Made by a program: the position numbers and the translations under genes. Of a stretch of 64,000 nt of DNA, positions 21,872 through 38,465 are shown piece by piece. The notes beneath the pieces were generated by a model. That model worked only from the letters and a program-made list of their open reading frames with translations, had not been told where the DNA came from and ran no database searches. The DNA is from Escherichia coli (GTDB taxonomy: Bacteria > Pseudomonadota > Gammaproteobacteria > Enterobacterales > Enterobacteriaceae). The stretch is from NCBI RefSeq assembly GCF_022846255.1, contig NZ_AP025682.1. The stretch is one strand, 5' to 3'. Numbering within the stretch: the stretch's first letter is position 1; each line of letters starts with the position of its first letter.

Positions 21872-21880
21872 CCTTCCTGA

Positions 21881-21917
21881 AAATGCCCGGTCCTGGCGAT
21901 CGGGCATTTCCATTTTT
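21881..21917. terminator. Terminator hairpin between convergent pitB and yghT
   Basis: aaatgcccg / cgggcattt stem followed by ccattttt. Confidence 0.55.
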
Positions 21918-21919
21918 CA

Positions 21920-22612
21920 CTAGTGATAACCACGCGCGGTCATAAAATCCGTAATCGCTTTTTCTGCATCAACCAGCACCTTTTCCAGTGGCTGATTGGC
22001 GTCGATATCAACCAGTTGTGCACCACCAAAGGTTAACTGTGGCGTTATGGCAATCTTCCTCGCCAGCGATTCCCGTTTATGGTCGGGTTTACGCGCGCAG
22101 GCAACTTCAAGGTCAACATTGAGTTTGATGACCAGATCGGGCTTGTGGCTCGCCATCCAGTGAAATGCTTTACGTTCCTGACTTGCCAGCCATGAGACAA
22201 AACGACCACCTTCAACGTTAGGCGGAAACACCGTACCATCATAAGCGCCAGGAATCTGGTCCTGCGGATAACGGTCGGTTAAAACAATTAACCCGCGACG
22301 ACGACAGGCAAGCATATGACGAAAGCGCAGTAAGCGACGGGCGACAAACGCTGTAATTACCAGCGCCGGAACTGGTCCAGGCAATTTTTTTGCTGTTTTT
22401 ACCTGATTTCGTTCAATTGTTTTATGTAAGGATTTTCCCATCAACGGTAATTTTGTCACTGCACGACCGACATTTCCGGCCTGTTTTCCTAAATGAACTC
22501 TTTCGGCAGCACCATATTTTTCGACAACGGTAATAAGATGTTCACACACCGTTGACTTGCCTGAACCATCGCTACCAATAACGGCAATTAATGGAGGTAT
22601 TATTGACTGCAT
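21920..22612 (-). CDS. yghT: P-loop NTPase of unknown function (paralogue of yghS/yghR), 230 aa
   Basis: Walker [10 protein letters not shown]; shared TDRYPQ and ARKPDH motifs with yghS and yghR. Confidence 0.85.
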
Positions 22613-22786
22613 GAATATATCCTTAAATTTAAATATCCATCCAAAATATTTATTTGGTTAATATGTTTTTGATGAAAGCGTAATTCAGGTCAATGTCACA
22701 ATTAACCATTGTCACAATAAGGTTGAACGGATATTCTGAGCACGGACCACGTAATATTCAATACATTATTTGCTGCCGGGTTTTTC

Positions 22787-23500
22787 GTGAATCAACGTAA
22801 TATGTCAATAATTAATTCCACGCCAGTGCGTGTTATTGCCATTGTAGGATGTGATGGTTCAGGTAAATCGACCCTCACGGCAAGCCTGGTAAATGAACTG
22901 GCAGCAACAATGCCAACAGAACACATTTATCTCGGGCAATCGTCCGGGCGAATTGGCGAATGGATTTCACAGCTCCCTGTTATTGGCGCACCTTTTGGGC
23001 GTTATCTGCGAAGTAAAGCGGCACATGTGCACGAAAAGCCCTCCACACCACCTGGCAATATTACTGCGCTGGTTATCTATCTGCTTTCCTGCTGGCGGGC
23101 GTACAAGTTTCGCAAAATGTTGTGTAAAAGCCAGCAAGGCTATCTGCTCATCACCGACCGCTACCCGCAGGTTGAAGTGCCGGGTTTTCGCTTTGATGGC
23201 CCGCAATTGGCAAAAACCACGGGCGGTAACGGTTGGATAAAAATGTTAAGGCAGCGCGAGCTGAAGCTGTACCAATGGATGGAGTCTTATTTGCCCGTAT
23301 TGTTGATTCGTCTTGGCATTGATGAACAAACCGCGTTTGCGCGTAAACCTGACCACCAACTGGCGGCGTTACAGGAAAAAATCGCCGTTACGCCGCAACT
23401 GACATTTAATGGCGCAAAGATCCTTGAACTGGATGGTCGGCAACCCGCCGATGAAATTCTGCAAGCGTCACTACGCGCAATTCACGCCGCGCTTTCCTGA
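22787..23500 (+). CDS. yghS: P-loop NTPase of unknown function, 237 aa
   Basis: GTG start; Walker A GCDGSGKST; TDRYPQ and ARKPDH motifs. Confidence 0.85.
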   Translation: MNQRNMSIINSTPVRVIAIVGCDGSGKSTLTASLVNELAATMPTEHIYLGQSSGRIGEWISQLPVIGAPFGRYLRSKAAHVHEKPSTPPGNITALVIYLLSCWRAYKFRKMLCKSQQGYLLITDRYPQVEVPGFRFDGPQLAKTTGGNGWIKMLRQRELKLYQWMESYLPVLLIRLGIDEQTAFARKPDHQLAALQEKIAVTPQLTFNGAKILELDGRQPADEILQASLRAIHAALS

Positions 23501-23531
23501 TCACCAAAATGGATAGGGGATGATTTAACGA

Positions 23532-24290
23532 ATGGACGCACTACAAACACAAACTGTTAATAGTACAACCGCGCCGCAGCCCAACTACATTCCGGGGCTG
23601 ATTGCGGTGGTCGGGTGTGATGGCACCGGTAAATCCACACTGACCACCGACCTGGTGAAATCGCTGCAACAACACTGGCAAACCGAGCGGCGCTATCTGG
23701 GGCTGCTCTCGGGCGAAGACGGCGACAAAATCAAACGATTGCCGTTGGTTGGCGTCTGGCTCGAACGGCGACTGGCGGCCAAATCCTCGAAAACCCAAAG
23801 CATGAAAACCAAATCTCCAGCGCTATGGGCGGCGGTGATTATGTACTGCTTCTCGCTGCGAAGAATGGCGAATCTACGCAAGGTTCAGCGACTGGCGCAA
23901 AGTGGCGTTCTGGTGGTCAGCGATCGCTTCCCGCAGGCTGAAATTTCGGGCTTTTATTATGACGGACCGGGGATCGGCGTCGAACGTGCGACCGGGAAAA
24001 TCAGCATGTTTCTGGCGCAGCGCGAACGGCGTTTATACCAACAAATGGCGCAACACCGTCCTGAATTAATCATTCGTTTGGGGATTGATATTGATACTGC
24101 CATCTCCCGCAAGCCTGACCATGACTATGCCGAGCTGCAGGACAAAATCGGCGTCATGTCGACGATTGGCTATAACGGCACAAAAATTCTTGAGATTGAT
24201 TCCAGAGCGCCCTACAGCGAAGTGCTGGAACAGGCACAGAAGGCGGTTTCTCTGGTTGCCATCGTTTCTGACCGCCGAAGTTTAACTTAA
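23532..24290 (+). CDS. yghR: P-loop NTPase of unknown function, 252 aa
   Basis: Walker A GCDGTGKST; SDRFPQ and SRKPDH motifs. Confidence 0.85.
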   Translation: MDALQTQTVNSTTAPQPNYIPGLIAVVGCDGTGKSTLTTDLVKSLQQHWQTERRYLGLLSGEDGDKIKRLPLVGVWLERRLAAKSSKTQSMKTKSPALWAAVIMYCFSLRRMANLRKVQRLAQSGVLVVSDRFPQAEISGFYYDGPGIGVERATGKISMFLAQRERRLYQQMAQHRPELIIRLGIDIDTAISRKPDHDYAELQDKIGVMSTIGYNGTKILEIDSRAPYSEVLEQAQKAVSLVAIVSDRRSLT

Positions 24291-24335
24291 GGCTGGCGGG
24301 ATACTTTTTACTATCAACGATAAGGTCAGGCTGAA

Positions 24336-25685
24336 TTGGCGGGTTTTAACATCAAACATTGGTTTGCAGATGGCGCGTTTCGCACCATTATTCGCAATAG
24401 CGCCTGGTTAGGCTCCAGTAATGTCGTGAGCGCTTTGCTGGGTCTGTTGGCGCTCTCGTGTGCCGGTAAAGGGATGACGCCCGCCATGTTTGGCGTACTG
24501 GTGATTGTACAATCGTACGCCAAGTCGATCAGCGATTTTATTAAGTTTCAGACATGGCAGCTGGTGGTTCAGTACGGAACACCAGCATTAACCAACAATA
24601 ATCCGCAGCAATTTCGCAATGTCGTCTCATTTTCCTTCTCGCTGGATATCGTCAGCGGCGCGGTGGCGATTGTCGGCGGCATTGCCTTACTCCCTTTTCT
24701 TTCCCATTCATTAGGTCTGGATGACCAAAGCTTTTGGCTGGCAGCGCTGTATTGCACGCTCATTCCTTCAATGGCTTCCTCCACGCCGACCGGCATTCTG
24801 CGTGCGGTAGATCGCTTCGATCTAATTGCTGTACAGCAAGCGACGAAACCTTTTCTGCGCGCAGCGGGGAGCGTCGTTGCCTGGTATTTTGACTTTGGTT
24901 TTGCGGGTTTTGTTATTGCCTGGTACGCCTCGAATCTTGTTGGCGGCACCATGTACTGGTGGTTTGCCGCACGTGAATTACGCCGCAGAAATATCCATAA
25001 CGCGTTCAAATTGAATCTGTTTGAGTCTGCCCGACACATCAAAGGCGCGTGGAGTTTTGTCTGGTCAACCAACATTGCCCATTCCATCTGGTCGGCGCGT
25101 AATTCGTGCAGCACAGTGTTGGTGGGGATCGTGTTAGGACCCGCTGCCGCCGGGTTATTTAAAATCGCCATGACATTCTTCGACGCCGCCGGAACGCCAG
25201 CGGGTTTACTGGGCAAAAGTTTTTACCCAGAGGTGATGCGTTTAGATCCGCGTACCACCAGACCGTGGTTGTTAGGCGTGAAGTCAGGTTTACTGGCGGG
25301 CGGAATCGGTATTCTGGTGGCGCTCGCGGTGTTGATTGTCGGCAAGCCGCTCATTTCGCTGGTGTTTGGCGTTAAGTATCTCGAAGCGTATGACCTGATT
25401 CAGGTGATGCTGGGCGCAATTGTGATCTCGATGCTGGGCTTCCCTCAGGAGTCATTGCTATTGATGGCGGGAAAACAGCGCGCTTTTCTCGTGGCGCAAA
25501 CCATCGCCTCAATCGGCTACATCGTATTGCTGTTCATGTTCTGTCATCTGTTTGGCGTGCTGGGAGCAGCGTTTGCTTATTTCGGCGGTCAATGTCTGGA
25601 TGTGGTGCTTTCGCTAATTCCGACCTTAAAGGCATTTTTTCAGCGCCATTCCTTGCTTTATAACGCAGCCGGAGAGAAATCCTGA
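24336..25685 (+). CDS. yghQ: Polytopic membrane protein, putative MOP-superfamily lipid/polysaccharide flippase; start uncertain (TTG 24336 or ATG 24474/24486)
   Basis: Long hydrophobic ORF with about 10-12 predicted TM segments; stop overlaps next gene start (ATGA). Confidence 0.7.
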   Translation: MAGFNIKHWFADGAFRTIIRNSAWLGSSNVVSALLGLLALSCAGKGMTPAMFGVLVIVQSYAKSISDFIKFQTWQLVVQYGTPALTNNNPQQFRNVVSFSFSLDIVSGAVAIVGGIALLPFLSHSLGLDDQSFWLAALYCTLIPSMASSTPTGILRAVDRFDLIAVQQATKPFLRAAGSVVAWYFDFGFAGFVIAWYASNLVGGTMYWWFAARELRRRNIHNAFKLNLFESARHIKGAWSFVWSTNIAHSIWSARNSCSTVLVGIVLGPAAAGLFKIAMTFFDAAGTPAGLLGKSFYPEVMRLDPRTTRPWLLGVKSGLLAGGIGILVALAVLIVGKPLISLVFGVKYLEAYDLIQVMLGAIVISMLGFPQESLLLMAGKQRAFLVAQTIASIGYIVLLFMFCHLFGVLGAAFAYFGGQCLDVVLSLIPTLKAFFQRHSLLYNAAGEKS

Positions 25686-26521
25686 TGATGAGAAAATATT
25701 TCCCGCTAGAGGCGAGCGAGCGTCTATTTGTTGCGATTGAAGAAGATGATGTCGTTGATGCACAGGTCAGTTTGCCGCCGACTATCGCACTAAGTTGTAC
25801 CACCGAAATCATCCATGATAATTACGCGTTATGCCTGCAATTCTGGCTCAATGGCGTCAATCGCCAGGAGTTACTGCGTTTAATATGCAAACAGGCCAAA
25901 GGCGATGAGCTGACTGCTGATGAGCGCAAACAATTTAAATACATGCGAGCGCGCTACAAGCACCTGCGTTTTGCGCAACGGCTGTATTTAAAGAAGCATC
26001 AGGCCGGATTTTTATTCGGCAAAACGACCGTTTTTTTGGGGCGTTTTCAGGATGGCTTTCGTAACGGTAAGAAAAATATTGTGTCGTTTTACAGTAACCT
26101 GTTACGTGTTTATTTGAGCTCCCCTGTCTGGTGGCTGGTGAACTATTCATTGCGCCATAGCCAGTTAGAAACCGTGAACGGTTTTATCGCCTACCGCCAG
26201 AAGCAAATGTACATCCTGAAAGAGATTATTGCTAAACCGCAACTAACTGGCAGGGAATTTCATGATGTGCGAAAAATCATCAGCCAGCAGGTTTCTTATT
26301 ACGACACCTTAAGATCGCTTGATCCTGAAAATAAAGAGGCGTTACTGATTTCCCGTTTTCTCGCCGCCATTAATGGTCTGATGGGGGATAAGCACGACGA
26401 CATGGTGGCGGATGATATGGAGAACCGCCGGTCATATGATGCACCGGTGGCGCTGGATAGCGATATTCGCCAGCGTTTAGAACTGCTTATTTCGCGTTTC
26501 CCACTCTATCCGGAGCAATAA
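25685..26521 (+). CDS. Hypothetical cytoplasmic protein, 278 aa, no family recognised
   Basis: ORF with GGAGAGA RBS 8 nt upstream; translationally coupled to yghQ and the next ORF. Confidence 0.65.
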   Translation: MMRKYFPLEASERLFVAIEEDDVVDAQVSLPPTIALSCTTEIIHDNYALCLQFWLNGVNRQELLRLICKQAKGDELTADERKQFKYMRARYKHLRFAQRLYLKKHQAGFLFGKTTVFLGRFQDGFRNGKKNIVSFYSNLLRVYLSSPVWWLVNYSLRHSQLETVNGFIAYRQKQMYILKEIIAKPQLTGREFHDVRKIISQQVSYYDTLRSLDPENKEALLISRFLAAINGLMGDKHDDMVADDMENRRSYDAPVALDSDIRQRLELLISRFPLYPEQ

Positions 26522-27081
26522 TGCCATCTCGTTGGATTTTCGCTCTGATCATCGCACTCTTAGCGCCAGGCGCGGCGGCACACAATTTCGTCACTGGCAA
26601 AACGGTTACCCCTGTTTATATCCAGGAAGGCGGCGAGCTGCTTCTGAATAGCGACGACGAAATTCACTACCAAAAGTGGAACAGCACACAATTGACGGGA
26701 AAAGTTCGCATTATTCAGTACATCGCCGGGCGTAAGTCGGCGAAGAAAAAGAACTCACTGTTAATTAAAGCGGTTGAAGCGGCAAACTTTCCGCAGGATC
26801 GTTTTCAGCCCACCACCATTGTGAACACTGATGATGCCATCTTTGGTACCGGCTATTTTGTCGTTGGCAAAATCGAAAAAAATAAACGCCGCTATCCGTG
26901 GGCGCAATTCGTTATTGACGGCAATGGACAGGGACGCGTTGCCTGGCACTTGCAGGAGCAGAGTTCAACCATTCTGGTGCTGAATAAAACCGGGCAAATT
27001 CAGTGGGCAAAGGACGGCAGCCTGACGCCGGAAGAGGTAGATCATGTCATTGCGCTGGCGCAGAAGCTGATCAATGAATAA
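26521..27081 (+). CDS. Hypothetical exported protein with N-terminal signal peptide, 186 aa
   Basis: N-terminus MPSRWIFALIIALLAPGAAAHNF resembles a Sec signal; ATG overlaps preceding stop (TAATG). Confidence 0.65.
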   Translation: MPSRWIFALIIALLAPGAAAHNFVTGKTVTPVYIQEGGELLLNSDDEIHYQKWNSTQLTGKVRIIQYIAGRKSAKKKNSLLIKAVEAANFPQDRFQPTTIVNTDDAIFGTGYFVVGKIEKNKRRYPWAQFVIDGNGQGRVAWHLQEQSSTILVLNKTGQIQWAKDGSLTPEEVDHVIALAQKLINE

Positions 27082-27110
27082 AAATTCAAAGGATTGAGGG
27101 CGTTAGTGAG

Positions 27111-28181
27111 ATGAAGCTGGTTGAACACTACATCATGCGTGGTACGCGCCGTCTGGTGCTGATTATCGTCGGTTTTCTGATCTTTATTTTCGCCAGCTAC
27201 TCCGCACAGCGTTATCTGACCGAAGCGGCAAATGGGACATTAGCTCTTGATGTTGTGCTGGATATCGTTTTCTACAAAGTGCTGATTGCACTGGAGATGT
27301 TGTTACCTGTTGGACTGTATGTGTCAGTTGGCGTGACGCTAGGGCAGATGTATACCGACTCGGAAATTACCGCTATCTCTGCGGCGGGGGGCAGTCCGGG
27401 ACGCTTGTACAAAGCCGTTCTTTATCTGGCGATACCGCTAAGTATTTTTGTCACCCTTCTGTCGATGTATGGTCGTCCGTGGGCTTATGCGCAGATTTAT
27501 CAACTGGAGCAACAGTCACAGTCGGAGCTGGATGTTCGCCAGTTGCGGGCAAAGAAATTTAACACTAACGATAACGGACGAATGATCCTTTCGCAGACGG
27601 TTGATCAGGATAATAATCGCCTGACTGACGCGCTGATTTATACTTCTACTGCTAATCGAACCCGCATTTTCCGCGCCCGTTCGGTTGATGTGGTTGACCC
27701 ATCACCTGAGAAACCGACCGTTATGTTGCATAACGGGACCGCCTATCTTCTCGATCATCAGGGGCGTGACGACAACGAACAGATCTACCGTAATCTGCAA
27801 TTACATCTGAATCCGCTGGATCAAAGCCCTAACGTCAAACGCAAAGCAAAATCGGTCACGGAGCTGGCGCGCTCCGCCTTTCCTGCCGATCATGCCGAAC
27901 TGCAATGGCGACAAAGCCGTGGCCTGACAGCATTGTTGATGGCGCTGCTGGCCATTTCATTAAGTCGGGTAAAACCGCGGCAAGGGCGATTTTCAACGTT
28001 ATTGCCACTGACGTTGCTGTTTGTTGCCATTTTTTATGGCGGCGACGTCTGCCGTACGCTGGTGGCTAACGGCGCGATTCCCCTCATTCCTGGTTTGTGG
28101 TTAGTACCCGGACTCATGCTAATGGGCCTGCTGATGTTGGTCGCACGCGACTTCTCTTTGCTGCAGAAATTTTCCCGATGA
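27111..28181 (+). CDS. LptF/LptG-family (YjgP/YjgQ) permease-like membrane protein, 356 aa
   Basis: 3 TM + about 150-aa hydrophilic domain + 3 TM topology read from translation; N-terminus resembles LptF. Confidence 0.7.
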   Translation: MKLVEHYIMRGTRRLVLIIVGFLIFIFASYSAQRYLTEAANGTLALDVVLDIVFYKVLIALEMLLPVGLYVSVGVTLGQMYTDSEITAISAAGGSPGRLYKAVLYLAIPLSIFVTLLSMYGRPWAYAQIYQLEQQSQSELDVRQLRAKKFNTNDNGRMILSQTVDQDNNRLTDALIYTSTANRTRIFRARSVDVVDPSPEKPTVMLHNGTAYLLDHQGRDDNEQIYRNLQLHLNPLDQSPNVKRKAKSVTELARSAFPADHAELQWRQSRGLTALLMALLAISLSRVKPRQGRFSTLLPLTLLFVAIFYGGDVCRTLVANGAIPLIPGLWLVPGLMLMGLLMLVARDFSLLQKFSR

Positions 28182-29257
28182 ATGTTTTCAGTCGCTATTT
28201 AATCCGTCATCTCTTTCTCGGTTTTGCCGCCGCCGCAGGGCTATTGCTGCCGCTTTTTACCACCTTCAACCTGATTAACGAACTGGATGATGTCAGCCCG
28301 GGTGGTTATCGCTGGACTCAGGCGGTGCTGGTGGTGCTGATGACCTTACCGCGCACACTGGTCGAACTTTCGCCGTTTATCGCCTTATTGGGAGGGATTG
28401 TCGGCCTGGGGCAGTTATCGAAAAACAGTGAGCTTACCGCCATTCGCAGCACGGGGTTTTCTATCTTCCGTATTGCACTGGTGGCGCTGGTTGCCGGGAT
28501 ATTGTGGACTGTTTCATTAGGCGCGATAGATGAGTGGGTGGCGTCGCCATTGCAGCAACAGGCGCTGCAAATCAAATCGACTGCCACCGCGTTGGGGGAG
28601 GACAATGACATTATCGGCAATATGCTTTGGGCCAGGCGCGGTAATGAATTTGTGACGGTGAAATCGCTGAACGAGCAGGGCCAGCCGGTGGGCGTGGAGA
28701 TTTTTCATTACCGCGACGATCTCTCGCTCGAATCCTACATTTATGCGCGCAGTGCCACCATTGAAGACGATAAAACGTGGATCCTGCATGGTGTGAATTA
28801 TAAAAAATGGTTGAATGGCAAAGAAACGCTGGAAACATTAGATAATCTTGCCTGGCAATCGGCCTTCACCAGTATGAATCTTGAAGAGTTATCGATGCCG
28901 GGGAATACTTTTTCTGTCCGTCAGCTTAATCATTACATCCATTATTTGCAGGATACCGGGCAACCCAGCAGCGAATACCACCTTGCACTGTGGGAAAAAC
29001 TGGGGCAACCGATCTTGACTCTGGCGATGATTTTGCTGGCTGTGCCGTTTACCTTTAGTGTCCCGCGCTCGCCAGGGATGGGTAGCCGTCTCGCTGTAGG
29101 CGTCATCGTTGGTTTACTCACCTGGATCAGCTATCAAATCATGGTCAATCTGGGATTGCTATTTGCGTTGAGCGCACCTGTTACCGCGCTCGGTTTACCG
29201 GTAGCGTTTGTGCTGGTGGCGTTGAGCCTGGTGTATTGGTATGACAGACAACATTAA
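28178..29257 (+). CDS. LptF/LptG-family (YjgP/YjgQ) permease-like membrane protein, 359 aa
   Basis: ORF-track 386 aa trimmed to MNVFSRYLIRHLF; ATG overlaps upstream stop (ATGA); same 3+3 TM topology. Confidence 0.7.
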   Translation: MNVFSRYLIRHLFLGFAAAAGLLLPLFTTFNLINELDDVSPGGYRWTQAVLVVLMTLPRTLVELSPFIALLGGIVGLGQLSKNSELTAIRSTGFSIFRIALVALVAGILWTVSLGAIDEWVASPLQQQALQIKSTATALGEDNDIIGNMLWARRGNEFVTVKSLNEQGQPVGVEIFHYRDDLSLESYIYARSATIEDDKTWILHGVNYKKWLNGKETLETLDNLAWQSAFTSMNLEELSMPGNTFSVRQLNHYIHYLQDTGQPSSEYHLALWEKLGQPILTLAMILLAVPFTFSVPRSPGMGSRLAVGVIVGLLTWISYQIMVNLGLLFALSAPVTALGLPVAFVLVALSLVYWYDRQH

Positions 29258-29288
29258 ACCCGCCGTGGCGCAACACCACGGCGGGTTC
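29257..29288. terminator. Bidirectional terminator hairpin between convergent permease and lipid operons
   Basis: 12-bp perfect stem aacccgccgtgg / ccacggcgggtt with 8-nt loop. Confidence 0.55.
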
Positions 29289-29291
29289 ACA

Positions 29292-30464
29292 TTACTGCTT
29301 CTGAGTAGCAAATGCCTGAATGATGGCATCGATTTGCTCACGACTGTGGGCAGCGTTTACGCTACAGCGCAGCAGCGTGATGCCAGCAGGCGCGGCAGGT
29401 GGCAGGATAAGATTCACATAAACGCCCAGCGAAATAAGCTCGCGCCAGATGCGTAAACCTTCCTCTTTCGAACCGATTATTACTGGCACTACCGGGCTAA
29501 TATGTGAACTTAACTCGTAACCCAGTTTTTGCAGACCGTCATACAGATGGTTGGCGTTATCCATCAGCTTTTGCCGCAGCTCTGGTTGTGAGGCAATGGT
29601 TCTTAACGACGAGCGCACGGTCGCAATGCAGGACGGAGAAGGAGAGGCGGTAAAAATATACGGGCGGCTGCCGTAGCGCAGCACTTCCATCGCTTCCGAA
29701 CCGACAGCAAAACCGCCAATCGAGGCCAGACTTTTACTGAAGGTGCCGACGATAATATCCACGTCGTCTTCAACGCCAACGGCTTCAACCAGTCCGCGCC
29801 CCGTAGCGCCTAACACGCCAAACGAATGTGCTTCATCGACAATCAAATAACCACCGAGACGACGTTTGATATCAACAATTTCTGCCAGCGGCGCAACGTC
29901 ACCGAGCATACTGTAGATGCCTTCAACGATAATAATCGCCTCTTTCGCCCGTTCACCGAGGCGGACCATGCGCCGTTCCAGATCGTTGACGTCATTATGG
30001 CGGAAACGAATAATCTCCGCGCCGCCGAGAGAACAGGCGTCATAAATACTGGCGTGGCTGTCGGCATCCAGTAACACCACGGCGTTATGGTCGGCAAGTG
30101 CGCTGATGACACCTAAATTAGCGGTATAACCGGTTGAAAAAACGATAGCGGTAGGGCGATTGAAAAACTCGGCAATCTCTTTCTCTAACGCCAGATGCGG
30201 CGCATAACTGCCGTTTGCCATACGAGAACCGGTGGTGCCGGTGCCTTGGGCCGCTAACGCTGCCTGACCTTCGCGGATAGCATCATGATTAAAGGTTAAA
30301 CCGAGATAATTATTGGTCCCGGCCAGAATCACTTTTTTATTGCCGATCCGGCCTTCGGTGGCGGAATATACTTCATCAATACAGGTGCCAAATGGTGTTA
30401 ACCCGTTGTCACTAAATTGCAGGCGCTCGCCAGCAAGGCGCGCATATTTATCGTATAGCCCCAT
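29292..30464 (-). CDS. PLP-dependent alpha-oxoamine synthase family acyltransferase (serine palmitoyltransferase / 8-amino-7-oxononanoate synthase-like), 390 aa
   Basis: PLP-lysine motif GTFSKSLAS and DEAHSFG; class-II aminotransferase fold inferred from translation. Confidence 0.8.
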   Translation of the reverse strand: MGLYDKYARLAGERLQFSDNGLTPFGTCIDEVYSATEGRIGNKKVILAGTNNYLGLTFNHDAIREGQAALAAQGTGTTGSRMANGSYAPHLALEKEIAEFFNRPTAIVFSTGYTANLGVISALADHNAVVLLDADSHASIYDACSLGGAEIIRFRHNDVNDLERRMVRLGERAKEAIIIVEGIYSMLGDVAPLAEIVDIKRRLGGYLIVDEAHSFGVLGATGRGLVEAVGVEDDVDIIVGTFSKSLASIGGFAVGSEAMEVLRYGSRPYIFTASPSPSCIATVRSSLRTIASQPELRQKLMDNANHLYDGLQKLGYELSSHISPVVPVIIGSKEEGLRIWRELISLGVYVNLILPPAAPAGITLLRCSVNAAHSREQIDAIIQAFATQKQ

Positions 30465-30712
30465 TATTTATTCTCCAGCCATGGAAGTAGAGTTTCCATT
30501 AATTGCGCAGGGGTTTTGACATCCAGCAGAATATTAATAGGAATGGAAATATCGAATCTGTCTTCCAGCATCATTAAGAGATCCATCACTTTGATCGACT
30601 CCAGGCCAAGATCGTTGACGAGATCGCTGTCGGGCTTAATTTCCACACCGTTTTCGACCAAATCCTGTAAACAGGAAAGGATGTAATCCATTACTATTTC
30701 ACGATTTACCAT
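30464..30712 (-). CDS. Acyl carrier protein, 82 aa
   Basis: Phosphopantetheine-attachment motif DLGLESIKVMDL; small acidic protein; stop overlaps next start. Confidence 0.8.
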   Translation of the reverse strand: MVNREIVMDYILSCLQDLVENGVEIKPDSDLVNDLGLESIKVMDLLMMLEDRFDISIPINILLDVKTPAQLMETLLPWLENK

Positions 30713-30743
30713 AGAAACGTTAACACACCTTTAAACAAGACAA

Positions 30744-31658
30744 TCAAAATAGCCCGTTGCGTAATGCGTGTTCCAGGCTAATCCCGGGAAACCAATTAAT
30801 ATCTTCAGAAATACGGTTATTACTTGCCGACCAGTCGGCATGAGTTAATTCACGGATTTTCGAACGAGTCAGCATCGGTTCTTTACCCGCCAGACGGCTC
30901 AACGCGGTACTGATATCCGCAAGGCAGGTGAGTAGCGGCAGAGGAATACCGACCATCCGCACGGAACCACAGCGGACATCGGCAACAAGCTGTTGGACAC
31001 GTTGCCAGTCATAGCCTCCGGCGACGCCATCGCATAATTCATAGGTTTGCGTCTGTACAGTTTCGGCGCTTAACCACTGACCCACTGCTTGCGCAAAATC
31101 GGTGACGTGAAGAAAAGAGAGCAGTGTCTCTGGCGTGCCAAGTCGTGGCAGCAGACCGCGCAGCATCCAGTCAAACAGCGGTTTTAACTCTTTATCGCCG
31201 GGACCATACACGGCTGTCGGGCGAAAAACGCCCAACGTAATTTCGTCAGCCATTGCAGTCAGCCGTTGTTCGGCGACGTGTTTGGAATTTGCGTACCAGG
31301 AGAGTTCGGGATGGCGCGCCGCCAGCGAAGAGATAAACAGAAAACGTTGGCAAAAGCCGCTCTCTTTTGCCGCTTGCATCAGGCGCAGGCTGCCGTCAAC
31401 GTTGCAGCGGGTAAAAATCTCTTCTTTGTGCCCGCGCACTTGCCCGGCGCAATGGACCACCGCGCTGGCTCCGGCAACCAGTTCGCTAAGCGAATGTGTA
31501 TCTTCCAGCGAACCGCGCACCCAAGTGAGATTATCATTGACGTGAGCGCGGGCAGTACGCGTCAATGCGCGAACGTGAAAGCCGCGGGCGAGCAGGTTAT
31601 CAATAATATATTTACCGATAAACCCGGTAGCGCCCGTCACCGCGACAGTTTGATTCAT
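30744..31658 (-). CDS. NAD(P)-dependent epimerase/dehydratase-family reductase (extended SDR), 304 aa
   Basis: ORF-track 374 aa trimmed to MNQTVAVTGATGFIGKY (Rossmann GxxGxxG); ATG overlaps upstream stop (ATGA). Confidence 0.78.
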   Translation of the reverse strand: MNQTVAVTGATGFIGKYIIDNLLARGFHVRALTRTARAHVNDNLTWVRGSLEDTHSLSELVAGASAVVHCAGQVRGHKEEIFTRCNVDGSLRLMQAAKESGFCQRFLFISSLAARHPELSWYANSKHVAEQRLTAMADEITLGVFRPTAVYGPGDKELKPLFDWMLRGLLPRLGTPETLLSFLHVTDFAQAVGQWLSAETVQTQTYELCDGVAGGYDWQRVQQLVADVRCGSVRMVGIPLPLLTCLADISTALSRLAGKEPMLTRSKIRELTHADWSASNNRISEDINWFPGISLEHALRNGLF

Positions 31659-33379
31659 GCCAGGGATTCCTGCACATGAAGACTGGCAGCATAAGCCTTC
31701 TGATAACGTTTTTTCGCTTCCGCACGGGCAGGCTTGCCGGAGGATGTTCGGGGAATACTGTGGGGCGGCAACAGATCGATATCCGCGGTAACGCCAAATT
31801 CGCTTTGGATCCGAGCTGCCAGCGCGTGGATAAGCTGCCCGCGACGTTCTTCGTCGCTGATCCGACACTGGATCTGCAAAATGATTTTTTCCTGGGCGGT
31901 AACAAAAGCAATCGCATCGCCAGAATGAATTTCCGGCTCCTGTTCCGCAATGTATTCAATATCCTGCGGCCAGATATTACGGCCACGAATAATAATCAGA
32001 TCTTTAATGCGTCCGGTGACATACAGATAACCGTCCAGCAGATAACCAAGGTCTCCGGTGTCTAACCAGCCCGTCGCGGCAATCTCGTCTTGCGAAACCT
32101 GGTCGCCAAAGTACCCGCTCATCAGGCTGGGGCCGGAGATGCAAATATGGCCTACCACACGTTCCGCGACAGGTATATCTGCTTCATTGCGGATTTCAAT
32201 GCCATGTTCCGGCAACGCTTTACCGCAGTTGACGAAAGTCGATACGGCGCGTGTTTCAGCACCCGGCGCGACGGCTTTACCCTGGTATTCGAGGATGTCG
32301 CGATCCACTTCGTTAACCACAACCCCGCAGGCTTCATCAGAGAAGCTGACAGCCAGCGCATTTTCTGCCAGTCCGTAGCACGGCATGAAAGTTTTATCGT
32401 CAAAGTTAACCTGACGGAAACATTCAGCGAATTGATGGAGTTGTTCTGCGGATATGGGTTCTGCGCCAATACCAGCGACGCGCCAGCAGGAAAGATCCAG
32501 TTCAGCGAGATCTTTTTCATTCACGCGGCGCTGGCACAATTCATAGCCAAACGGCGGTGCAACGGAAACGGTGCCACGATTTTTACTGATCAATTTAAGC
32601 CATTGCAGAGGACGCATGGCAAAATCCTGAGTGCGCAAATAATCTACTGAAAGCTGCGTGGCGACGGGGGTCAGGAGAAAGCCGACCAGTCCCATATCAT
32701 GGTAGAAAGGCAGCCAGGAGACGCAGCGGTCGCCAGGGCGTAATTTAATCCCATCGTGGCTTATAGCACGTAGATTAGCCATCACTTCGTGATGGGTGAT
32801 AATGACGCCACGGGGAAAACGGGTGCTGCCGGAGGTGTACTGGAGGTAGGCGATATCGTTTGGAACTGGACGCTGGAGCACAACATCGGCTTCCGGTAAT
32901 GCCTTAAACCAGGCGTGGCTTAAAACATGTAATTCGGGGTTGTTGTTATGCGTCGCGGCATTGACCAGTGGCAACCACTCATCACCAGTGATAATGGCTG
33001 CGGGCTGGCAACTTGCCAGTAAACCCTGCAGTTTGGCGCTCCAGGAATCCCGCTGACCTACGCCCATTGGAATCGCCAACGGGACGGCGACTAAGCCGGC
33101 ATACTGGCAGGCAAAAAAAGCCTCTACAAACCCGCTACTCGTTTCGGCAATCAGCGCCACGCGATCGCCTTTTTTCAGGTTCAGCGATAACAACCTTTTC
33201 GCACCAGCTTCGGCACGCGCTTTTAACGTCTGATATTCCAGTTGATCTTCAAGTTGGCAACGTCTGTCATAAAAATTCATTCCGGCGCTACTCAGAGCGG
33301 CGTAGTCCAAAGCATCAACCAGCGTTGGAAAATCGGCATAGCGCATAGGTAGGGAATGCGTAAAGATTTTATTAGACAT
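31655..33379 (-). CDS. Fatty-acyl-AMP ligase / acyl-ACP synthetase-like adenylating enzyme, about 574 aa
   Basis: AMP-binding motifs YTSGSTRFPRG and GRIKDLIIIRGRNIWPQDIE; start set at ATG 33379 (alternative TTG 33406). Confidence 0.8.
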   Translation of the reverse strand: MSNKIFTHSLPMRYADFPTLVDALDYAALSSAGMNFYDRRCQLEDQLEYQTLKARAEAGAKRLLSLNLKKGDRVALIAETSSGFVEAFFACQYAGLVAVPLAIPMGVGQRDSWSAKLQGLLASCQPAAIITGDEWLPLVNAATHNNNPELHVLSHAWFKALPEADVVLQRPVPNDIAYLQYTSGSTRFPRGVIITHHEVMANLRAISHDGIKLRPGDRCVSWLPFYHDMGLVGFLLTPVATQLSVDYLRTQDFAMRPLQWLKLISKNRGTVSVAPPFGYELCQRRVNEKDLAELDLSCWRVAGIGAEPISAEQLHQFAECFRQVNFDDKTFMPCYGLAENALAVSFSDEACGVVVNEVDRDILEYQGKAVAPGAETRAVSTFVNCGKALPEHGIEIRNEADIPVAERVVGHICISGPSLMSGYFGDQVSQDEIAATGWLDTGDLGYLLDGYLYVTGRIKDLIIIRGRNIWPQDIEYIAEQEPEIHSGDAIAFVTAQEKIILQIQCRISDEERRGQLIHALAARIQSEFGVTADIDLLPPHSIPRTSSGKPARAEAKKRYQKAYAASLHVQESLA

Positions 33380-33749
33380 ATACACCACGAAAAAATTGGA
33401 TATCAAAAATAAAATGACAATAATGCGGTGGATTATATAGGCATAAAAGATAAATGAGATAGTATTTTCATCGGTGTGAAAATGAACATTGATTTAAATA
33501 ATAAGTTTGGCTTTTTTGTTTTTATTGTGAATGATATTTAATTTGTGAATATATTAAGAAGGAGCCTTGTCCGGTCGCCTTAAATCGACAAGAGGCATTG
33601 TGGCGCTTCTGTGTAGTCTTTGACCTTATCGTAATCATTAATAAATACTATTTATTCTTTGTTTGTATTCATTGGGTTGATTATTAAGATGCCGTTCGTT
33701 GCTGTTGCAACCTGTTTTTCACCGTTAATTATTTGTTATCCACAGAGAT

Positions 33750-34892
33750 ATGGAATGCGATCTGCTGATGATTAAAATTGAAAAAGTAATTAATAAAAAA
33801 GACCTTAAGGCATTTATCGCTTTTCCGTCATCACTTTATCCCGATGATCCAAACTGGATACCCCCTTTATTCATTGAACGTAGCGAGCATTTGTCTGCGA
33901 AGAATCCGGGGACGGACCATATCATCTGGCAGGCGTGGGTGGCAAAAAAAGCGGGGCAGATAGTTGGGCGTATTACCGCGCAAATAGATACCTTGCACCG
34001 TGAGCGTTACGGTGAAGATACCGGTCATTTCGGAATGATTGATGCCATTGATGATCCGCAGGTTTTTGCCGCGTTGTTTGGCGCAGCGGAGGCGTGGTTG
34101 AAGTCACAAGGTGCAAGTAAGATCAGCGGGCCTTTCAGCCTGAATATCAATCAGGAAAGCGGATTACTGATTGAAGGTTTTGACACACCTCCCTGTGCGA
34201 TGATGCCACACGGCAAACCGTGGTATGCCGCGCATATTGAACAACTGGGTTATCACAAAGGCATTGATTTACTGGCGTGGTGGATGCAGCGAACCGATCT
34301 CACTTTCTCTCCGGCGCTAAAAAAACTGATGGATCAGGTGCGCAAAAAAGTGACCATTCGCTGCATCAATCGCCAGCGGTTTGCCGAAGAGATGCAGATC
34401 CTGCGTGAGATTTTCAATTCTGGCTGGCAGCACAACTGGGGATTTGTGCCGTTTACCGAACATGAATTCGCGACCATGGGCGATCAACTTAAATATCTGG
34501 TGCCGGACGATATGATCTACATCGCTGAGATTGATTCTGCACCCTGCGCGTTTATTGTTGGCTTGCCGAACATCAACGAGGCGATTACCGATCTGAACGG
34601 ATCGCTCTTTCCCTTCGGCTGGGCAAAATTGCTGTGGCGTTTGAAAGTCAGCGGTGTGCGAACTGCGCGAGTGCCGCTGATGGGCGTGCGGGACGAGTAT
34701 CAGTTCAGCCGCATCGGCCCGGTGATTGCGCTGTTATTGATTGAAGCCTTACGCGATCCGTTTGCCCGCCGGAAGATCGATGCGCTGGAAATGTCATGGA
34801 TCCTCGAAACCAATACAGGCATGAATAACATGCTGGAACGCATTGGGGCGGAGCCGTACAAGCGTTACCGATTGTATGAAAAGCAGATTTGA
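33750..34892 (+). CDS. yghO: Uncharacterised protein, possible N-acyltransferase; start uncertain (ATG 33750 or 33768), 380 aa
   Basis: ORF divergent from the lipid operon and convergent with glcC; symbol assigned by position relative to glcC from memory. Confidence 0.6.
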   Translation: MECDLLMIKIEKVINKKDLKAFIAFPSSLYPDDPNWIPPLFIERSEHLSAKNPGTDHIIWQAWVAKKAGQIVGRITAQIDTLHRERYGEDTGHFGMIDAIDDPQVFAALFGAAEAWLKSQGASKISGPFSLNINQESGLLIEGFDTPPCAMMPHGKPWYAAHIEQLGYHKGIDLLAWWMQRTDLTFSPALKKLMDQVRKKVTIRCINRQRFAEEMQILREIFNSGWQHNWGFVPFTEHEFATMGDQLKYLVPDDMIYIAEIDSAPCAFIVGLPNINEAITDLNGSLFPFGWAKLLWRLKVSGVRTARVPLMGVRDEYQFSRIGPVIALLLIEALRDPFARRKIDALEMSWILETNTGMNNMLERIGAEPYKRYRLYEKQI

Positions 34893-34898
34893 TGGCAG

Positions 34899-35663
34899 TC
34901 ACCCCTGCTTCATCTCCAGCGGCACCGCCGAGCGAATCAAATGGTGGCCTTCCAGCTCGATATCGTGGAGATTCTTTTTCACGGTCCGCACATGATCGCG
35001 TGCTGCGCGCTGGGCAACGTGCGGCAGCCGCTGCAACACCGCGTTGTAGATCCGCGCATGCTGGCGATCGATCTGCTTTTTTTGCTGTGGTCGATGGTAG
35101 AGATTATTTACGCTGGCAAACACCGAATTAAACATCAGGTCGGTCAATGATTGCAGCGTAAACACCAGCACCTGATTGTGAGAAGCCTGACAAATGGCGA
35201 GATGGAAAGCGTGATCCAACTGCGCATGTTCGATCAGCGAAATCTCTTTGTTGTTCTCACTGACGGCGAGCATTTTTTCATAACAGCGGGTTATCACAAC
35301 AAAATCAGCCTGGGTTCCCAGCGTTGCCGCCAGCCTTGCCGATTCGCCCTCCAGTAATGCGCGAACGTCGAGCAGATCGTACAACGTTCGCGGCTGCGTA
35401 CTGAACAGATGGATCAGCGGGCTGGTGTCCTGCACCCGATTAAGCCGTGCGACACGAGAATCGCGACCCTGCGCCGTTTCAATAATCCCGCGCCCGCGCA
35501 GCACGGTCAGCCCTTCACGCAGTGCGGAGCGTGAGAAGCCGAGCTTTTCACACAGTCGACGTTCCGAGGGAAGCGGCTGACCGACCTTCAGTACGCCGTC
35601 GATAATTAACCGTTCGATACTTTCTGCAACCACTTCGCAAATAGGGCGACGTTCATCTTTCAT
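34899..35663 (-). CDS. glcC: GntR/FadR-family transcriptional activator of the glycolate operon, 254 aa
   Basis: ORF-track 274 aa trimmed to MKDERRPICEVV; N-terminal winged HTH; divergent from glcD. Confidence 0.92.
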   Translation of the reverse strand: MKDERRPICEVVAESIERLIIDGVLKVGQPLPSERRLCEKLGFSRSALREGLTVLRGRGIIETAQGRDSRVARLNRVQDTSPLIHLFSTQPRTLYDLLDVRALLEGESARLAATLGTQADFVVITRCYEKMLAVSENNKEISLIEHAQLDHAFHLAICQASHNQVLVFTLQSLTDLMFNSVFASVNNLYHRPQQKKQIDRQHARIYNAVLQRLPHVAQRAARDHVRTVKKNLHDIELEGHHLIRSAVPLEMKQG

Positions 35664-35913
35664 TCCCGGACCTCGTGCACAGGTAGGACCAATTTTTCTG
35701 TTCTTAACTCGCAAAACACGCACATCACGTAAGTGATTATGTTACATCAATTTAACATTAAGTTAACCAAAGCAAGGTCACAGAGCTGGAAAAAAAATGG
35801 TCTGACCGGTAGCTAAAGAGATAGACGAAAACGAAAAGCCCGCTTAATAACTGTTCACAGAAGCAGCGCGAAAAAATCAGCTGCCACACAACACAACAAA
35901 GCGAACCCTACTC

Positions 35914-37413
35914 ATGAGCATCTTGTACGAAGAGCGTCTTGATGGCGCTTTACCCGAAGTCGACCGCACATCGGTACTGATGGCACTGCGTGAGCATGTC
36001 CCTGGACTGGAGATCCTGCATACCGATGAGGAGATCATTCCTTACGAGTGTGACGGGTTGAGCGCGTATCGCACGCGTCCATTACTGGTTGTTCTGCCTA
36101 AGCAGATGGAACAGGTGACGGCGATTCTGGCTGTCTGCCACCGCCTGCGTGTGCCGGTGGTGACCCGTGGCGCAGGCACCGGGCTTTCTGGTGGCGCGCT
36201 GCCGCTGGAAAAAGGTGTGTTGTTGGTGATGGCGCGCTTTAAAGAGATCCTCGACATTAACCCCATCGGTCGCCGCGCGCGCGTGCAGCCGGGCGTGCGT
36301 AACCTGGCGATCTCCCAGGCCGTTGCGCCGCATAATCTCTATTACGCGCCGGATCCGTCCTCACAAATCGCCTGTTCGATTGGCGGCAATGTGGCGGAAA
36401 ATGCCGGTGGCGTTCACTGCCTGAAATATGGTCTAACCGTACATAACCTGCTGAAAATTGAAGTGCAAACGCTGGATGGCGAGGCGCTGACGCTGGGATC
36501 GGACGCGCTGGATTCGCCTGGTTTTGACCTGCTGGCGCTGTTTACCGGATCGGAAGGCATGCTTGGCGTGACCACCGAAGTGACGGTAAAGCTGCTGCCG
36601 AAGCCGCCCGTGGCGCGGGTTCTGTTAGCCAGCTTTGACTCGGTAGAAAAAGCCGGACTTGCGGTTGGTGACATCATCGCCAATGGCATTATCCCCGGCG
36701 GGCTGGAGATGATGGATAACCTGTCGATTCGCGCGGCGGAAGATTTTATTCATGCCGGTTATCCCGTCGATGCCGAAGCGATTTTGTTATGCGAACTGGA
36801 CGGCGTGGAGTCTGACGTACAGGAAGACTGCGAGCAGGTTAACGACATCTTGTTGAACGCGGGTGCGACTGACGTCCGTCTGGCACAGGACGAAGCAGAG
36901 CGCGTACGTTTCTGGGCCGGTCGCAAAAATGCGTTCCCGGCGGTAGGACGTATCTCCCCGGATTACTACTGCATGGATGGCACCATCCCGCGCCGCGCCC
37001 TGCCTGGCGTACTGGAAGGCATTGCCCGTTTATCGCAGCAATATGATTTACGCGTTGCCAACGTCTTTCATGCCGGAGACGGCAACATGCACCCGTTAAT
37101 CCTTTTCGATGCCAACGAACCCGGTGAATTTGCCCGCGCGGAAGAACTGGGCGGGAAGATCCTCGAACTCTGCGTTGAAGTTGGCGGCAGCATCAGTGGG
37201 GAACATGGCATCGGGCGCGAAAAAATCAATCAAATGTGCGCCCAGTTCAACAGCGATGAAATCACGACCTTCCATGCGGTCAAGGCGGCGTTTGACCCCG
37301 ATGGTTTGCTGAACCCAGGAAAAAACATTCCCACGCTACACCGCTGTGCTGAATTTGGTGCCATGCATGTGCATCACGGTCATTTACCTTTTCCTGAACT
37401 GGAGCGTTTCTGA
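35914..37413 (+). CDS. glcD: Glycolate oxidase FAD-binding subunit, 499 aa
   Basis: FAD-binding PCMH-type domain motifs; first gene of glc operon. Confidence 0.95.
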   Translation: MSILYEERLDGALPEVDRTSVLMALREHVPGLEILHTDEEIIPYECDGLSAYRTRPLLVVLPKQMEQVTAILAVCHRLRVPVVTRGAGTGLSGGALPLEKGVLLVMARFKEILDINPIGRRARVQPGVRNLAISQAVAPHNLYYAPDPSSQIACSIGGNVAENAGGVHCLKYGLTVHNLLKIEVQTLDGEALTLGSDALDSPGFDLLALFTGSEGMLGVTTEVTVKLLPKPPVARVLLASFDSVEKAGLAVGDIIANGIIPGGLEMMDNLSIRAAEDFIHAGYPVDAEAILLCELDGVESDVQEDCEQVNDILLNAGATDVRLAQDEAERVRFWAGRKNAFPAVGRISPDYYCMDGTIPRRALPGVLEGIARLSQQYDLRVANVFHAGDGNMHPLILFDANEPGEFARAEELGGKILELCVEVGGSISGEHGIGREKINQMCAQFNSDEITTFHAVKAAFDPDGLLNPGKNIPTLHRCAEFGAMHVHHGHLPFPELERF

Positions 37414-38465
37414 TGCTACGCGAGTGTGATTACAGCCAGGCGCTGCTGGAGCAGGTGAATCAGGCGATTAGCGATAAAACGCCGCTGGTGATTCAGGGCA
37501 GCAATAGCAAAGCCTTTTTAGGTCGCCCTGTCACCGGGCAAACGCTGGATGTGCGTTGTCATCGCGGCATTGTTAATTACGACCCGACCGAGTTGGTGAT
37601 AACCGCGCGTGCCGGAACGCCGCTGGTGGCGATTGAAGCAGCGCTGGAGAGCGCCGGGCAACTGCTCCCCTGCGAGCCGCCGCATTATGGTGAAGAAGCC
37701 ACCTGGGGCGGGATGGTCGCTTGCGGGCTGGCGGGGCCGCGTCGCCCGTGGAGTGGTTCGGTCCGCGATTTTGTCCTCGGCACGCGCATCATTACCGGCA
37801 CTGGAAAACATCTGCGTTTTGGTGGCGAAGTGATGAAAAACGTTGCCGGATACGATCTCTCACGGTTAATGGCCGGAAGCTACGGTTGTCTTGGCGTGCT
37901 CACTGAAATCTCGATGAAAGTGTTACCGCGACCGCGCGCCTCCCTGAGCCTGCGTCGGGAAATCAGCCTGCAAGAAGCCATGAATGAAATCGCCCAGTGG
38001 CAACTCCAGCCGCTACCCATTAGTGGCTTATGTTACTTCGACAATGCGTTGTGGATCCGCCTTGAGGGCGGCGAAGGATCGGTAAAAGCAGCGCGTGAAC
38101 TGCTGGGTGGCGAAGAGGTTGCAGGTCAGTTCTGGCAGCAATTGCGTGAACAACAACTGCCGTTCTTCTCGTTACCAGGTACCTTATGGCGCATTTCATT
38201 ACCCAGTGATGCGCCGATGATGGATTTACCCGGCGAGCAACTGATCGACTGGGGCGGGGCGTTACGCTGGCTGAAATCGACAGCCGATGACAATCAAATC
38301 CATCGCATTGCCCGCAACGCTGGCGGTCATGCGACCCGCTTTAGTGCCGGAGATGGTGGCTTTGCCCCGCTACCGGCTCCTTTATTCCGCTATCACCAGC
38401 AGCTTAAACAGCAGCTCGACCCTTGCGGCGTGTTTAATCCCGGTCGCATGTACGCGGAGCTTTAA
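37413..38465 (+). CDS. glcE: Glycolate oxidase FAD-binding subunit, 350 aa
   Basis: ATG overlaps glcD stop; FAD-linked oxidase family. Confidence 0.93.
   Translation: MLRECDYSQALLEQVNQAISDKTPLVIQGSNSKAFLGRPVTGQTLDVRCHRGIVNYDPTELVITARAGTPLVAIEAALESAGQLLPCEPPHYGEEATWGGMVACGLAGPRRPWSGSVRDFVLGTRIITGTGKHLRFGGEVMKNVAGYDLSRLMAGSYGCLGVLTEISMKVLPRPRASLSLRREISLQEAMNEIAQWQLQPLPISGLCYFDNALWIRLEGGEGSVKAARELLGGEEVAGQFWQQLREQQLPFFSLPGTLWRISLPSDAPMMDLPGEQLIDWGGALRWLKSTADDNQIHRIARNAGGHATRFSAGDGGFAPLPAPLFRYHQQLKQQLDPCGVFNPGRMYAEL

Follow-up and report, generated by a model that had tools for sequence, protein, structure and literature searches.

What is encoded in the roughly 9-kb interval between yghQ and glcC of Escherichia coli, and why is it missing from the laboratory strain K-12? 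The question is raised by a 64,000-nucleotide stretch of E. coli contig NZ_AP025682.1 (assembly GCF_022846255.1), which was analysed as a whole and is called the window hereafter. The block examined spans window positions 25685-34892 (~9.2 kb) and was delimited from an open reading frame (ORF) listing and its translation. The first-pass annotation had described nine intact genes and no transposase in this interval, had stated that K-12 holds only a disrupted yghO and an insertion sequence (IS) there, and had proposed a lineage-specific loss in laboratory strains that could explain why the system is unstudied. The results indicate, with a probability of roughly 0.85, that the interval forms the core of a sphingolipid locus that comprises 13 genes in Escherichia, responsible for ceramide synthesis and export and repeatedly lost via IS-associated deletions.

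The gene content was described accurately. The nine ORFs of 25685-34892 contain no internal stops, and no transposase was found in the interval, either in the RefSeq annotation of N1420, which is the nearest complete genome (98.9% identical), or in NCBIfam scans of the nine proteins. The system is not unstudied, however, as the block is an already-published E. coli locus for the synthesis and export of ceramide-type (sphingo)lipids. The AasR, AcpR and Spt proteins of E. coli B have been characterised (PMC9386255), and the UTI89 locus has been pictured beside the Caulobacter sphingolipid locus by Uchendu, Isom and Klein 2026 (bioRxiv 10.64898/2026.04.12.717747). BL21(DE3) ECD_02850-ECD_02854 and the UTI89 locus are the same locus as the one in the window, with the same five ceramide genes plus lptF2/lptG2 and no essential difference.

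The BL21(DE3) genes aasR (ECD_02851), acpR (ECD_02853) and spt (ECD_02854) were cloned by Padilla-Gomez et al. 2022 (PMC9386255). According to that study, E. coli B AcpR bears 4'-phosphopantetheine, AasR acylates its own cognate AcpR, and Spt forms 3-oxo-sphinganine, with acyl-AcpR preferred. Its Table S2 gives the reductase ECD_02852 as the ortholog of Caulobacter CC_1164 (34% identity, E 7e-38), and yghO (ECD_02850) as the ortholog of the N-acyltransferase CC_1154 (44% identity, E 1e-107, 98% coverage). In the portions available, the published work treats these five genes, with lptF2/lptG2 added in a figure, and not yghT, yghS, yghR, the gene of the CHAD-fold protein or ytfJ2. Literature searches on yghQ, yghR, yghS, yghT and yghO returned nothing relevant besides the papers cited here.

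The window proteins were compared with the corresponding families. Spt scores 597 against the equivalog model NF047599 (cut-off 500), aligns over its full length with the serine palmitoyltransferase (SPT) of S. paucimobilis, 2jg2 (E 3.6e-111), and conserves the GTFSKS motif of the pyridoxal phosphate lysine, DSHASIYD and DEAHS when aligned to solved bacterial SPTs. AasR scores 868 against NF006624 (cut-off 600). AcpR matches acyl carrier protein families of NCBIfam, with a candidate phosphopantetheine serine in its LGLES motif, and its gene lies directly upstream of spt, its stop overlapping the spt start. CerR presents an N-terminal Rossmann motif, TGATGFIG, and matches to extended short-chain dehydrogenase/reductase families. 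Among Enterobacterales genera, YghO proteins share ~80% identity and bear the name GNAT/N-acetyltransferase, and some orthologs carry PF00583; a single-sequence PDB search with YghO gave no significant match. Judged by sequence, the five genes aasR, acpR, spt, cerR and yghO constitute the complete predicted set for dihydroceramide.

In the proposed pathway, AasR places a fatty acid on AcpR, and Spt joins acyl-AcpR and serine into 3-oxo-sphinganine, both reactions having been shown with the enzymes of E. coli B. Orthology suggests that dihydroceramide would result from an N-acylation catalysed by YghO and a reduction catalysed by CerR, the order of these two reactions being debated even in Caulobacter.

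The unit to which these genes belong comprises 13 genes, from yghT to yghO (window 21920-34892), and not nine. Its features, with the neighbouring glcC, are as follows.

21920..22612, minus strand: yghT, thymidylate-kinase-like P-loop kinase, paralog 1; outside the interval first described, yet part of the unit
22787..23500, plus strand: yghS, thymidylate-kinase-like P-loop kinase, paralog 2; opens a seven-gene plus-strand operon
23532..24290, plus strand: yghR, thymidylate-kinase-like P-loop kinase, paralog 3
24336..25685, plus strand: yghQ, MOP/Wzx-type flippase-like membrane protein
25685..26521, plus strand: CHAD-fold protein ('Ybl138'), 278 amino acids (aa), cytoplasmic and all-helical, with abundant conserved Arg, Lys and His
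26521..27081, plus strand: ytfJ2, periplasmic YtfJ-family paralog with a signal peptide
27111..28181, plus strand: lptF2, LptF-like permease
28178..29257, plus strand: lptG2, LptG-like permease, its start overlapping the lptF2 stop (ATGA)
29255..29289: 16-bp G+C-rich hairpin between the convergent lptG2 and spt
29292..30464, minus strand: spt, serine palmitoyltransferase
30464..30712, minus strand: acpR, dedicated acyl carrier protein, 82 aa
30744..31658, minus strand: cerR (epi), NAD(P)-dependent reductase of the epimerase/dehydratase family
31655..33379, minus strand: aasR, fatty acyl-AMP ligase-type acyl-AcpR synthetase
33380..33767: divergent aasR-yghO intergenic region, 388 bp, 32% G+C, wholly deleted in K-12
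33768..34892, plus strand: yghO, ortholog of bacterial ceramide synthase (bCerS/aca), 374 aa
34899-35663, minus strand: glcC, starting seven bases past yghO

Stops and starts overlap at five junctions (yghQ/CHAD-like, CHAD-like/ytfJ2, lptF2/lptG2, aasR/cerR and acpR/spt), and the remaining intergenic gaps within the operons are 29-45 bp. Therefore, the left edge at 25685 cuts an operon that starts at yghS. For yghO, an in-frame ATG at 33750, six codons upstream, would open a 380-aa ORF, and the start used in all other genera corresponds to the 374-aa form.

We infer that the hairpin between lptG2 and spt is probably a bidirectional terminator. It was the sole standout of the promoter and terminator scans, whose counts were not above those of shuffled controls. 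The 388-bp aasR-yghO region is presumed to be regulatory, and promoter-like matches within it were no more than expected by chance. Its G+C content of 32% (33380-33767) is far under that of its surroundings, and this region may be under silencing or tight regulatory control. An Rfam search of window 19000-37000 yielded no match.

All 13 genes co-occur in Erwinia, Serratia, Pseudocitrobacter and E. albertii. The Erwinia locus has the identical gene order with other flanks, the aasR-spt module is transposed in Serratia, the Pseudocitrobacter locus also adjoins pitB, and the E. albertii locus occupies the exact pitB-glcC site. When the window was compared with E. albertii, the ratio of nonsynonymous to synonymous substitution rates (dN/dS) was 0.027-0.154 for all 13 genes, with values of 0.029 for the flanking pitB and 0.137 for glcC. 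Given the shared site in E. albertii and the low dN/dS, the locus is ancestral and constrained: as read from these comparisons, it stood between pitB and glcC before the E. coli/E. albertii split and is under purifying selection. A horizontally acquired island was considered and rejected, since the G+C content of ~0.47-0.55 resembles that of the flanks, no mobility genes are found, and E. albertii has the locus at the same site. The neighbours of the locus include phosphate-related genes, namely pitB in Escherichia and Pseudocitrobacter (L014, 4637-6136) and a class B acid phosphatase gene in Erwinia (L006, 5375-6097), which may be a coincidence.

Beyond the five ceramide genes, the locus encodes a conserved accessory module. 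YghT, YghS and YghR all carry a Walker A motif, GSDGSGKST in YghT, and are related to each other by 36% (YghT-YghS), 34% (YghT-YghR) and 44% (YghR-YghS) identity; the DRxPQ and RKPDH motifs of YghR are invariant. A profile of 35 such sequences searched against the PDB matched thymidylate kinases best (E 8e-12, over the P-loop, the DRY-type motif and the C-terminal part). A single-sequence PDB search with YghR gave no significant match, nor did one with YtfJ2. RefSeq, through the Prokaryotic Genome Annotation Pipeline (PGAP), names YghS and YghT (21920-23500) 'dTMP kinase'; their score of 25 bits is far below the cut-off of 83 bits for deoxythymidine monophosphate kinase. The canonical tmk gene lies elsewhere in E. 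coli. Two other assignments were rejected. The three proteins are not homologs of CpgB, given that CpgB is of the LCB5/diacylglycerol (DAG)-kinase type and they are P-loop proteins, and they are not PPK2 enzymes, given that a Pfam scan returned generic P-loop families without PF03976.

The 278-aa protein has no Pfam or NCBIfam match, and its homologs detected by sequence are confined to Enterobacterales. Its fold is predicted confidently, with a mean predicted local distance difference test score (pLDDT) of 93, and the predicted structure has the two-bundle, all-helical architecture of CHAD domains. A Foldseek search against AFDB50 returned full-length, CHAD-annotated matches with template modelling (TM) scores of 0.90-0.95 and 26-42% identity, from Sphingomonas, Zymomonas, Acetobacter, Gluconobacter, Komagataeibacter, Commensalibacter and Pseudomonas veronii. 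Compared with known CHAD domain proteins (PF05235; 6qv5, 6rn5, 3e0s), the E. coli subfamily differs in matching no CHAD sequence profile, in Pfam at any threshold or among PDB chains; the CHAD-like subfamily occurs in sphingolipid-producing Proteobacteria. Arg, Lys or His occupies 14 of the 58 invariant columns of the alignment, and polyphosphate binding is a candidate property. The window protein ends in ...FPLYPEQ, a C-terminus unlike that of the 274-aa form that is common in E. coli and E. albertii.

YghQ matches the NCBIfam MOP flippase model weakly (score 34 versus an equivalog cut-off of 273). It has at least six hydrophobic segments, its orthologs bear PF01943/PF13440, and it shares an InterPro family with the Caulobacter candidate flippase CC_1166. 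By these family matches YghQ is classed as a member of the Polysacc_synt (MOP/Wzx) family, and it is not named Wzx. YtfJ2 scores 214 against TIGR01626 (cut-off 151) and is 55% identical to the housekeeping YtfJ of K-12.

In order to follow the module across taxa, the kinase-family alignment was scanned on one genome per species, which gave 78 loci, and each locus was searched with the 13 window proteins. At least two kinase paralogs occur in 33/33 Enterobacterales-type loci and 38/45 loci of other taxa, and three paralogs in 33/33 and 24/45, respectively. The CHAD-like gene accompanies them in 32/33 Enterobacterales-type and 17/45 other loci, the YghQ-like gene in 31/33 and 21/45, and ytfJ2 in 32/33 and 0/45. 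The spt gene is present in 31/33 Enterobacterales-type loci and in 14/45 of the others, where it lies 1.5-10 kb from the kinases. The non-enterobacterial loci with spt nearby include Carnimonas, Rhodanobacter, Luteibacter, Sulfuritalea, Gallionellaceae, Methylotenera, Rhodocyclaceae and an Aeromonadales metagenome-assembled genome. Several loci without a nearby spt belong to Sphingomonadales and Acetobacter, in which the sphingolipid genes are scattered over the genome. In Sphingopyxis, for instance, the kinases are accompanied by both YghQ, at 57% identity, and the CHAD-like gene, at 45%. In some non-enterobacterial loci, those of Luteibacter (L048/L049) among them, and also L051, L066 and L069, either the CHAD-like gene is duplicated or a further YghT-like paralog lies beside the kinases.

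Fusions of the kinase domain were identified in a representative set of 1.84 billion proteins. Partners include MOP flippases (proteins of 978 aa and 1,038 aa) and a GT4 glycosyltransferase, and the commonest partner is NTP_transf_5 (PF14907), an uncharacterised nucleotidyltransferase domain. The YghRST-type kinase domain is fused C-terminally in these proteins, which include P0344, P0389, P0364 and proteins of ~500 aa such as P0299. Together, the co-occurrence and the fusions tie the kinases physically and evolutionarily to the flippase and to sphingolipid producers, although they do not identify the phosphorylated substrate.

These data bear on the alternative that has most to recommend it, in which yghT, yghS, yghR and the CHAD-fold gene would be an independent, PPK3-like polyphosphate system that is a mere neighbour of the ceramide genes and takes no part in making the lipid. 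In the archaeal PPK3 of Sulfolobus, two thymidylate-kinase-like paralogs form a heteromer, and their operon also encodes a CHAD protein (PMC12995831); the present locus likewise has tandem thymidylate-kinase-superfamily paralogs near a CHAD-fold gene, here within 4 kb. The best profile matches of YghT/S/R are thymidylate kinases, the 278-aa protein has the CHAD fold, and in some loci of other taxa no spt lies inside 10 kb of the kinases. Nevertheless, translational coupling joins the CHAD-like gene to yghQ and ytfJ2 in an operon that ends in lptF2-lptG2, spt does lie inside 10 kb in the 14 non-enterobacterial loci counted above, most of the other, spt-less loci come from orders that make sphingolipids with scattered genes, and some bacteria have MOP flippases fused to the kinase domain. 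The locus also differs from PPK3 in having three paralogs instead of two, in being a membrane-lipid locus, and in having no ppx or sixA neighbours. The YghRST profile matches the solved cPPK3 homolog 2plr/5h70 over the P-loop only (E 5e-6), and canonical thymidylate kinases are the stronger match. Given the missing ppx/sixA neighbour and the P-loop-only match, we did not adopt YghT/S/R as PPK3 members, and we consider a separate polyphosphate system unlikely.

The absence of the block from K-12 was mapped with blastn. MG1655 retains window 20001-25404 and 33790-40000 in collinear order and lacks 25405..33789 (8,385 bp), which blastn and the junction sequences show to be replaced by a single IS5 of ~1,195 bp, annotated IS5LO/insH9 in NC_000913.3. 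The gene order there is glcC, yghO, IS5LO/insH9, yghQ, yghR, yghS, yghT, pitB. The IS5 at the break is complete, with ends GGAAGGTGCG...CGCACCTTCC, and the 4-bp sequences beside it are unequal (TTAG on the left, TTAA on the right); therefore, the event was an IS5-associated deletion and not a simple insertion.

The deletion damages the genes on both sides. The last 281 nt of yghQ are gone, and the gene carries a RefSeq pseudogene flag in NZ_CP010439.1. The first 22 nt of yghO in its 374-aa form, or 40 nt of the 380-aa ORF, are deleted together with the whole upstream region, and in NC_000913.3 yghO is a coding sequence that starts inside IS5 and carries no pseudogene flag. Hence the description of a disrupted yghO and an IS in K-12 was correct, with the refinement that yghQ is truncated too, and the intact genes of the block are not at this position in K-12. 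What K-12 retains of the unit is three orphan genes (yghR, yghS and yghT) and two broken ones (yghQ and yghO).

The distribution of the block was surveyed in 5,426 complete E. coli genomes, a set biased to clinical and laboratory isolates, so that the fractions given are descriptive only; deletion junctions were examined in sampled matches. The 9.2-kb block is at least 80% covered in 4,058/5,426 genomes (~75%), and the surrounding 19 kb in 4,041/5,426, whereas 780 of the 5,426 give no match to the block at all. The exact K-12 yghQ'-IS5 junction is present in 342/5,426 genomes (6.3%), and all four of the full-length junction matches that were sampled are K-12-type laboratory strains. In O157:H7, pitB is truncated and the block is replaced by an IS3/IS66-rich segment; O55:H7 retains yghQ. 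In the enteroaggregative strain 55989, an IS1 replaces acpR' to glcC', with the loss of aasR, cerR, yghO, most of acpR and part of glcC. Natural lineages have thus lost the block independently, through separate IS events. Strain 55989 (L004, locus 10292-12885) keeps spt, lptF2/lptG2 and the upstream genes, and is a natural 'half pathway' strain.

The proposed loss in laboratory strains is therefore true of K-12 but not a general trait of such strains: B95.deltaA, which is BL21-derived, aligns to the entire 19-kb region (100% coverage, 96.8% identity), and BL21(DE3) is the source of the published enzymes. The presence/absence comparison across the species likewise places the block in most genomes and attributes its loss in O157:H7 and 55989 to IS events other than that of K-12.

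Such recurrent loss could also mean that E. coli carries the locus as a silent remnant in decay, one that makes no lipid under any natural condition and is easily lost for that reason. The independent deletions in K-12, O157:H7 and 55989 fit this account, as do the roughly one quarter of complete genomes without an intact copy and the lack of an E. coli sphingolipid report in the literature searched, and the AT-rich control region (32% G+C) would suit typical E. coli silencing. Decay is nevertheless difficult to reconcile with 13 intact ORFs, with dN/dS values of 0.03-0.15 against E. albertii that equal those of the housekeeping flanks, with the conservation of YghO across Enterobacterales genera, with the retention of the block at one site in ~75% of genomes, and with the activity of the E. 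coli B enzymes (PMC9386255). A decaying remnant is accordingly quite improbable.

Other differences from K-12 were observed in the window. A second K-12 deletion, at 51792-59787, removes genes of the type II secretion system T2SS-beta, beginning in the 3' part of gspC and ending in the 5' part of gspL, and MG1655 retains only yghF, yghE and yghD of that region. Downstream of yghD (gspM), window 61290-64000 has no K-12 match, and K-12 has the tRNA-Phe gene pheV there; no tRNA gene was found anywhere in the window. The N1420 annotation places ATP-binding cassette (ABC) transporter genes in this stretch, which may be a pheV-associated variable region.

The export half of the locus is formed by lptF2 and lptG2. 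LptF2 scores 320 against TIGR04407 (cut-off 230) and LptG2 scores 299 against TIGR04408 (cut-off 240), and they share only 29% and 28% identity, respectively, with their housekeeping counterparts in K-12, LptF and LptG. RefSeq/PGAP labels the two genes (27111-29257) 'LPS export ABC transporter permease LptF/LptG', names that are misleading, since identity to the true lipopolysaccharide (LPS) permeases is only 28-29%. With the LptB2FG extractor of LPS, the pair shares the family PF03739, two adjacent overlapping permease genes and multiple hydrophobic segments. It differs in that no lptB or lptC is present in the locus, and in its linkage to ceramide genes instead of to pepA/yjgR. In Caulobacter, LptF2/LptG2 (CCNA_01214/01213) bind each other and LptB, and lptF2/lptG2 can be deleted only when anionic sphingolipid synthesis is absent (bioRxiv 10.64898/2026.04.12.717747). 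By homology and the Caulobacter analogy, the E. coli LptF2/LptG2 may serve as a second permease pair that uses the housekeeping LptB and extracts sphingolipid from the inner membrane for the outer membrane.

That lptF2/lptG2 would be spare LPS exporters, with biosynthetic neighbours making a soluble or secreted amino-lipid signal, is very improbable: both proteins do pass the NCBIfam 'equivalog' cut-offs for LptF/LptG, which the PGAP names follow, and Spt-related alpha-oxoamine synthases yield other products in other systems, but the identity to the housekeeping proteins is low and the same genomes retain those proteins, lptF2/lptG2 are always linked to spt in Enterobacterales, the Caulobacter homologs become indispensable only upon synthesis of anionic sphingolipid, 3-oxo-sphinganine is the product of E. 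coli B Spt, and the full five-gene ceramide set is present.

A number of observations count against a sphingolipid synthesis and export locus and were weighed in the probability given to it. YghO has no Pfam or NCBIfam match, so that its assignment derives from the published comparison, and its AlphaFold2 model reaches a pLDDT of only 54, from 18 homologs that are all ~80% identical and thus form too shallow an alignment. The CHAD similarity is structural, as neither Pfam nor a PDB profile of 29 homologs finds a CHAD chain, and the roles of YghQ, YghT/S/R, the CHAD-fold protein and YtfJ2 are drawn from linkage and fold alone. No LptC2 homolog was found among the 13 genes of the locus. The recurrent loss shows that the locus is dispensable in several successful lineages. 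Finally, the literature searches returned no sphingolipid extracted from any E. coli, and expression and product in vivo are therefore predictions.

For the head group, the comparison is with the Caulobacter crescentus sphingolipid locus, CC_1152-CC_1168 (CCNA_01210-01226). Its genes for the ceramide diphosphoglycerate head group (CpgA-D, CC_1152/1153/1158-1161) and LptC2 are without counterpart in the E. coli locus, whereas the three thymidylate-kinase-like paralogs, the CHAD-fold protein and the YtfJ paralog are not found in the Caulobacter cluster. NCBIfam and Pfam searches with the 13 proteins gave no match to a DAG-kinase-type ceramide kinase, a cytidine diphosphate (CDP)-alcohol-type transferase or nucleotidyltransferases. 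Given that no Caulobacter head-group enzymes are encoded among the 13 genes, the E. coli head group should differ from ceramide diphosphoglycerate.

From linkage, YghT/S/R and the CHAD-fold protein might make or handle an anionic, phosphate-containing head group and so replace the Caulobacter CpgA-D proteins; YghQ might flip the lipid across the inner membrane, and YtfJ2 might be an Enterobacterales-specific periplasmic accessory. A more specific version, which we regard as doubtful and offer as speculation, is that these proteins form an undescribed head-group and flipping module of Enterobacterales and of many beta-, gamma- and alpha-proteobacterial producers. In this module, a PPK3-like YghT/S/R hetero-oligomer would phosphorylate ceramide, perhaps repeatedly or from polyphosphate, either the phosphate-rich head group or polyphosphate would be the ligand of the CHAD-fold protein, and LptB2F2G2 would receive the product once YghQ had flipped it. 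If this were true, the outer membrane of wild E. coli would bear an anionic phospho-sphingolipid unseen in K-12 research.

To the published locus, the present analysis adds an exact deletion map, the repeated independent loss amid purifying selection, the extent of the 13-gene unit and a conserved, uncharacterised accessory module. About three quarters of sequenced E. coli maintain, under purifying selection, a complete ceramide pathway and an additional Lpt-type exporter, both of which are lacking in K-12, the strain on which nearly all E. coli envelope biology is based. Provided that the locus is expressed, wild strains, commensals and extraintestinal pathogens of this species have in their outer membrane a lipid class missing from the textbook model, which, by analogy with Caulobacter, could alter sensitivity to polymyxin and detergents as well as recognition by the host.

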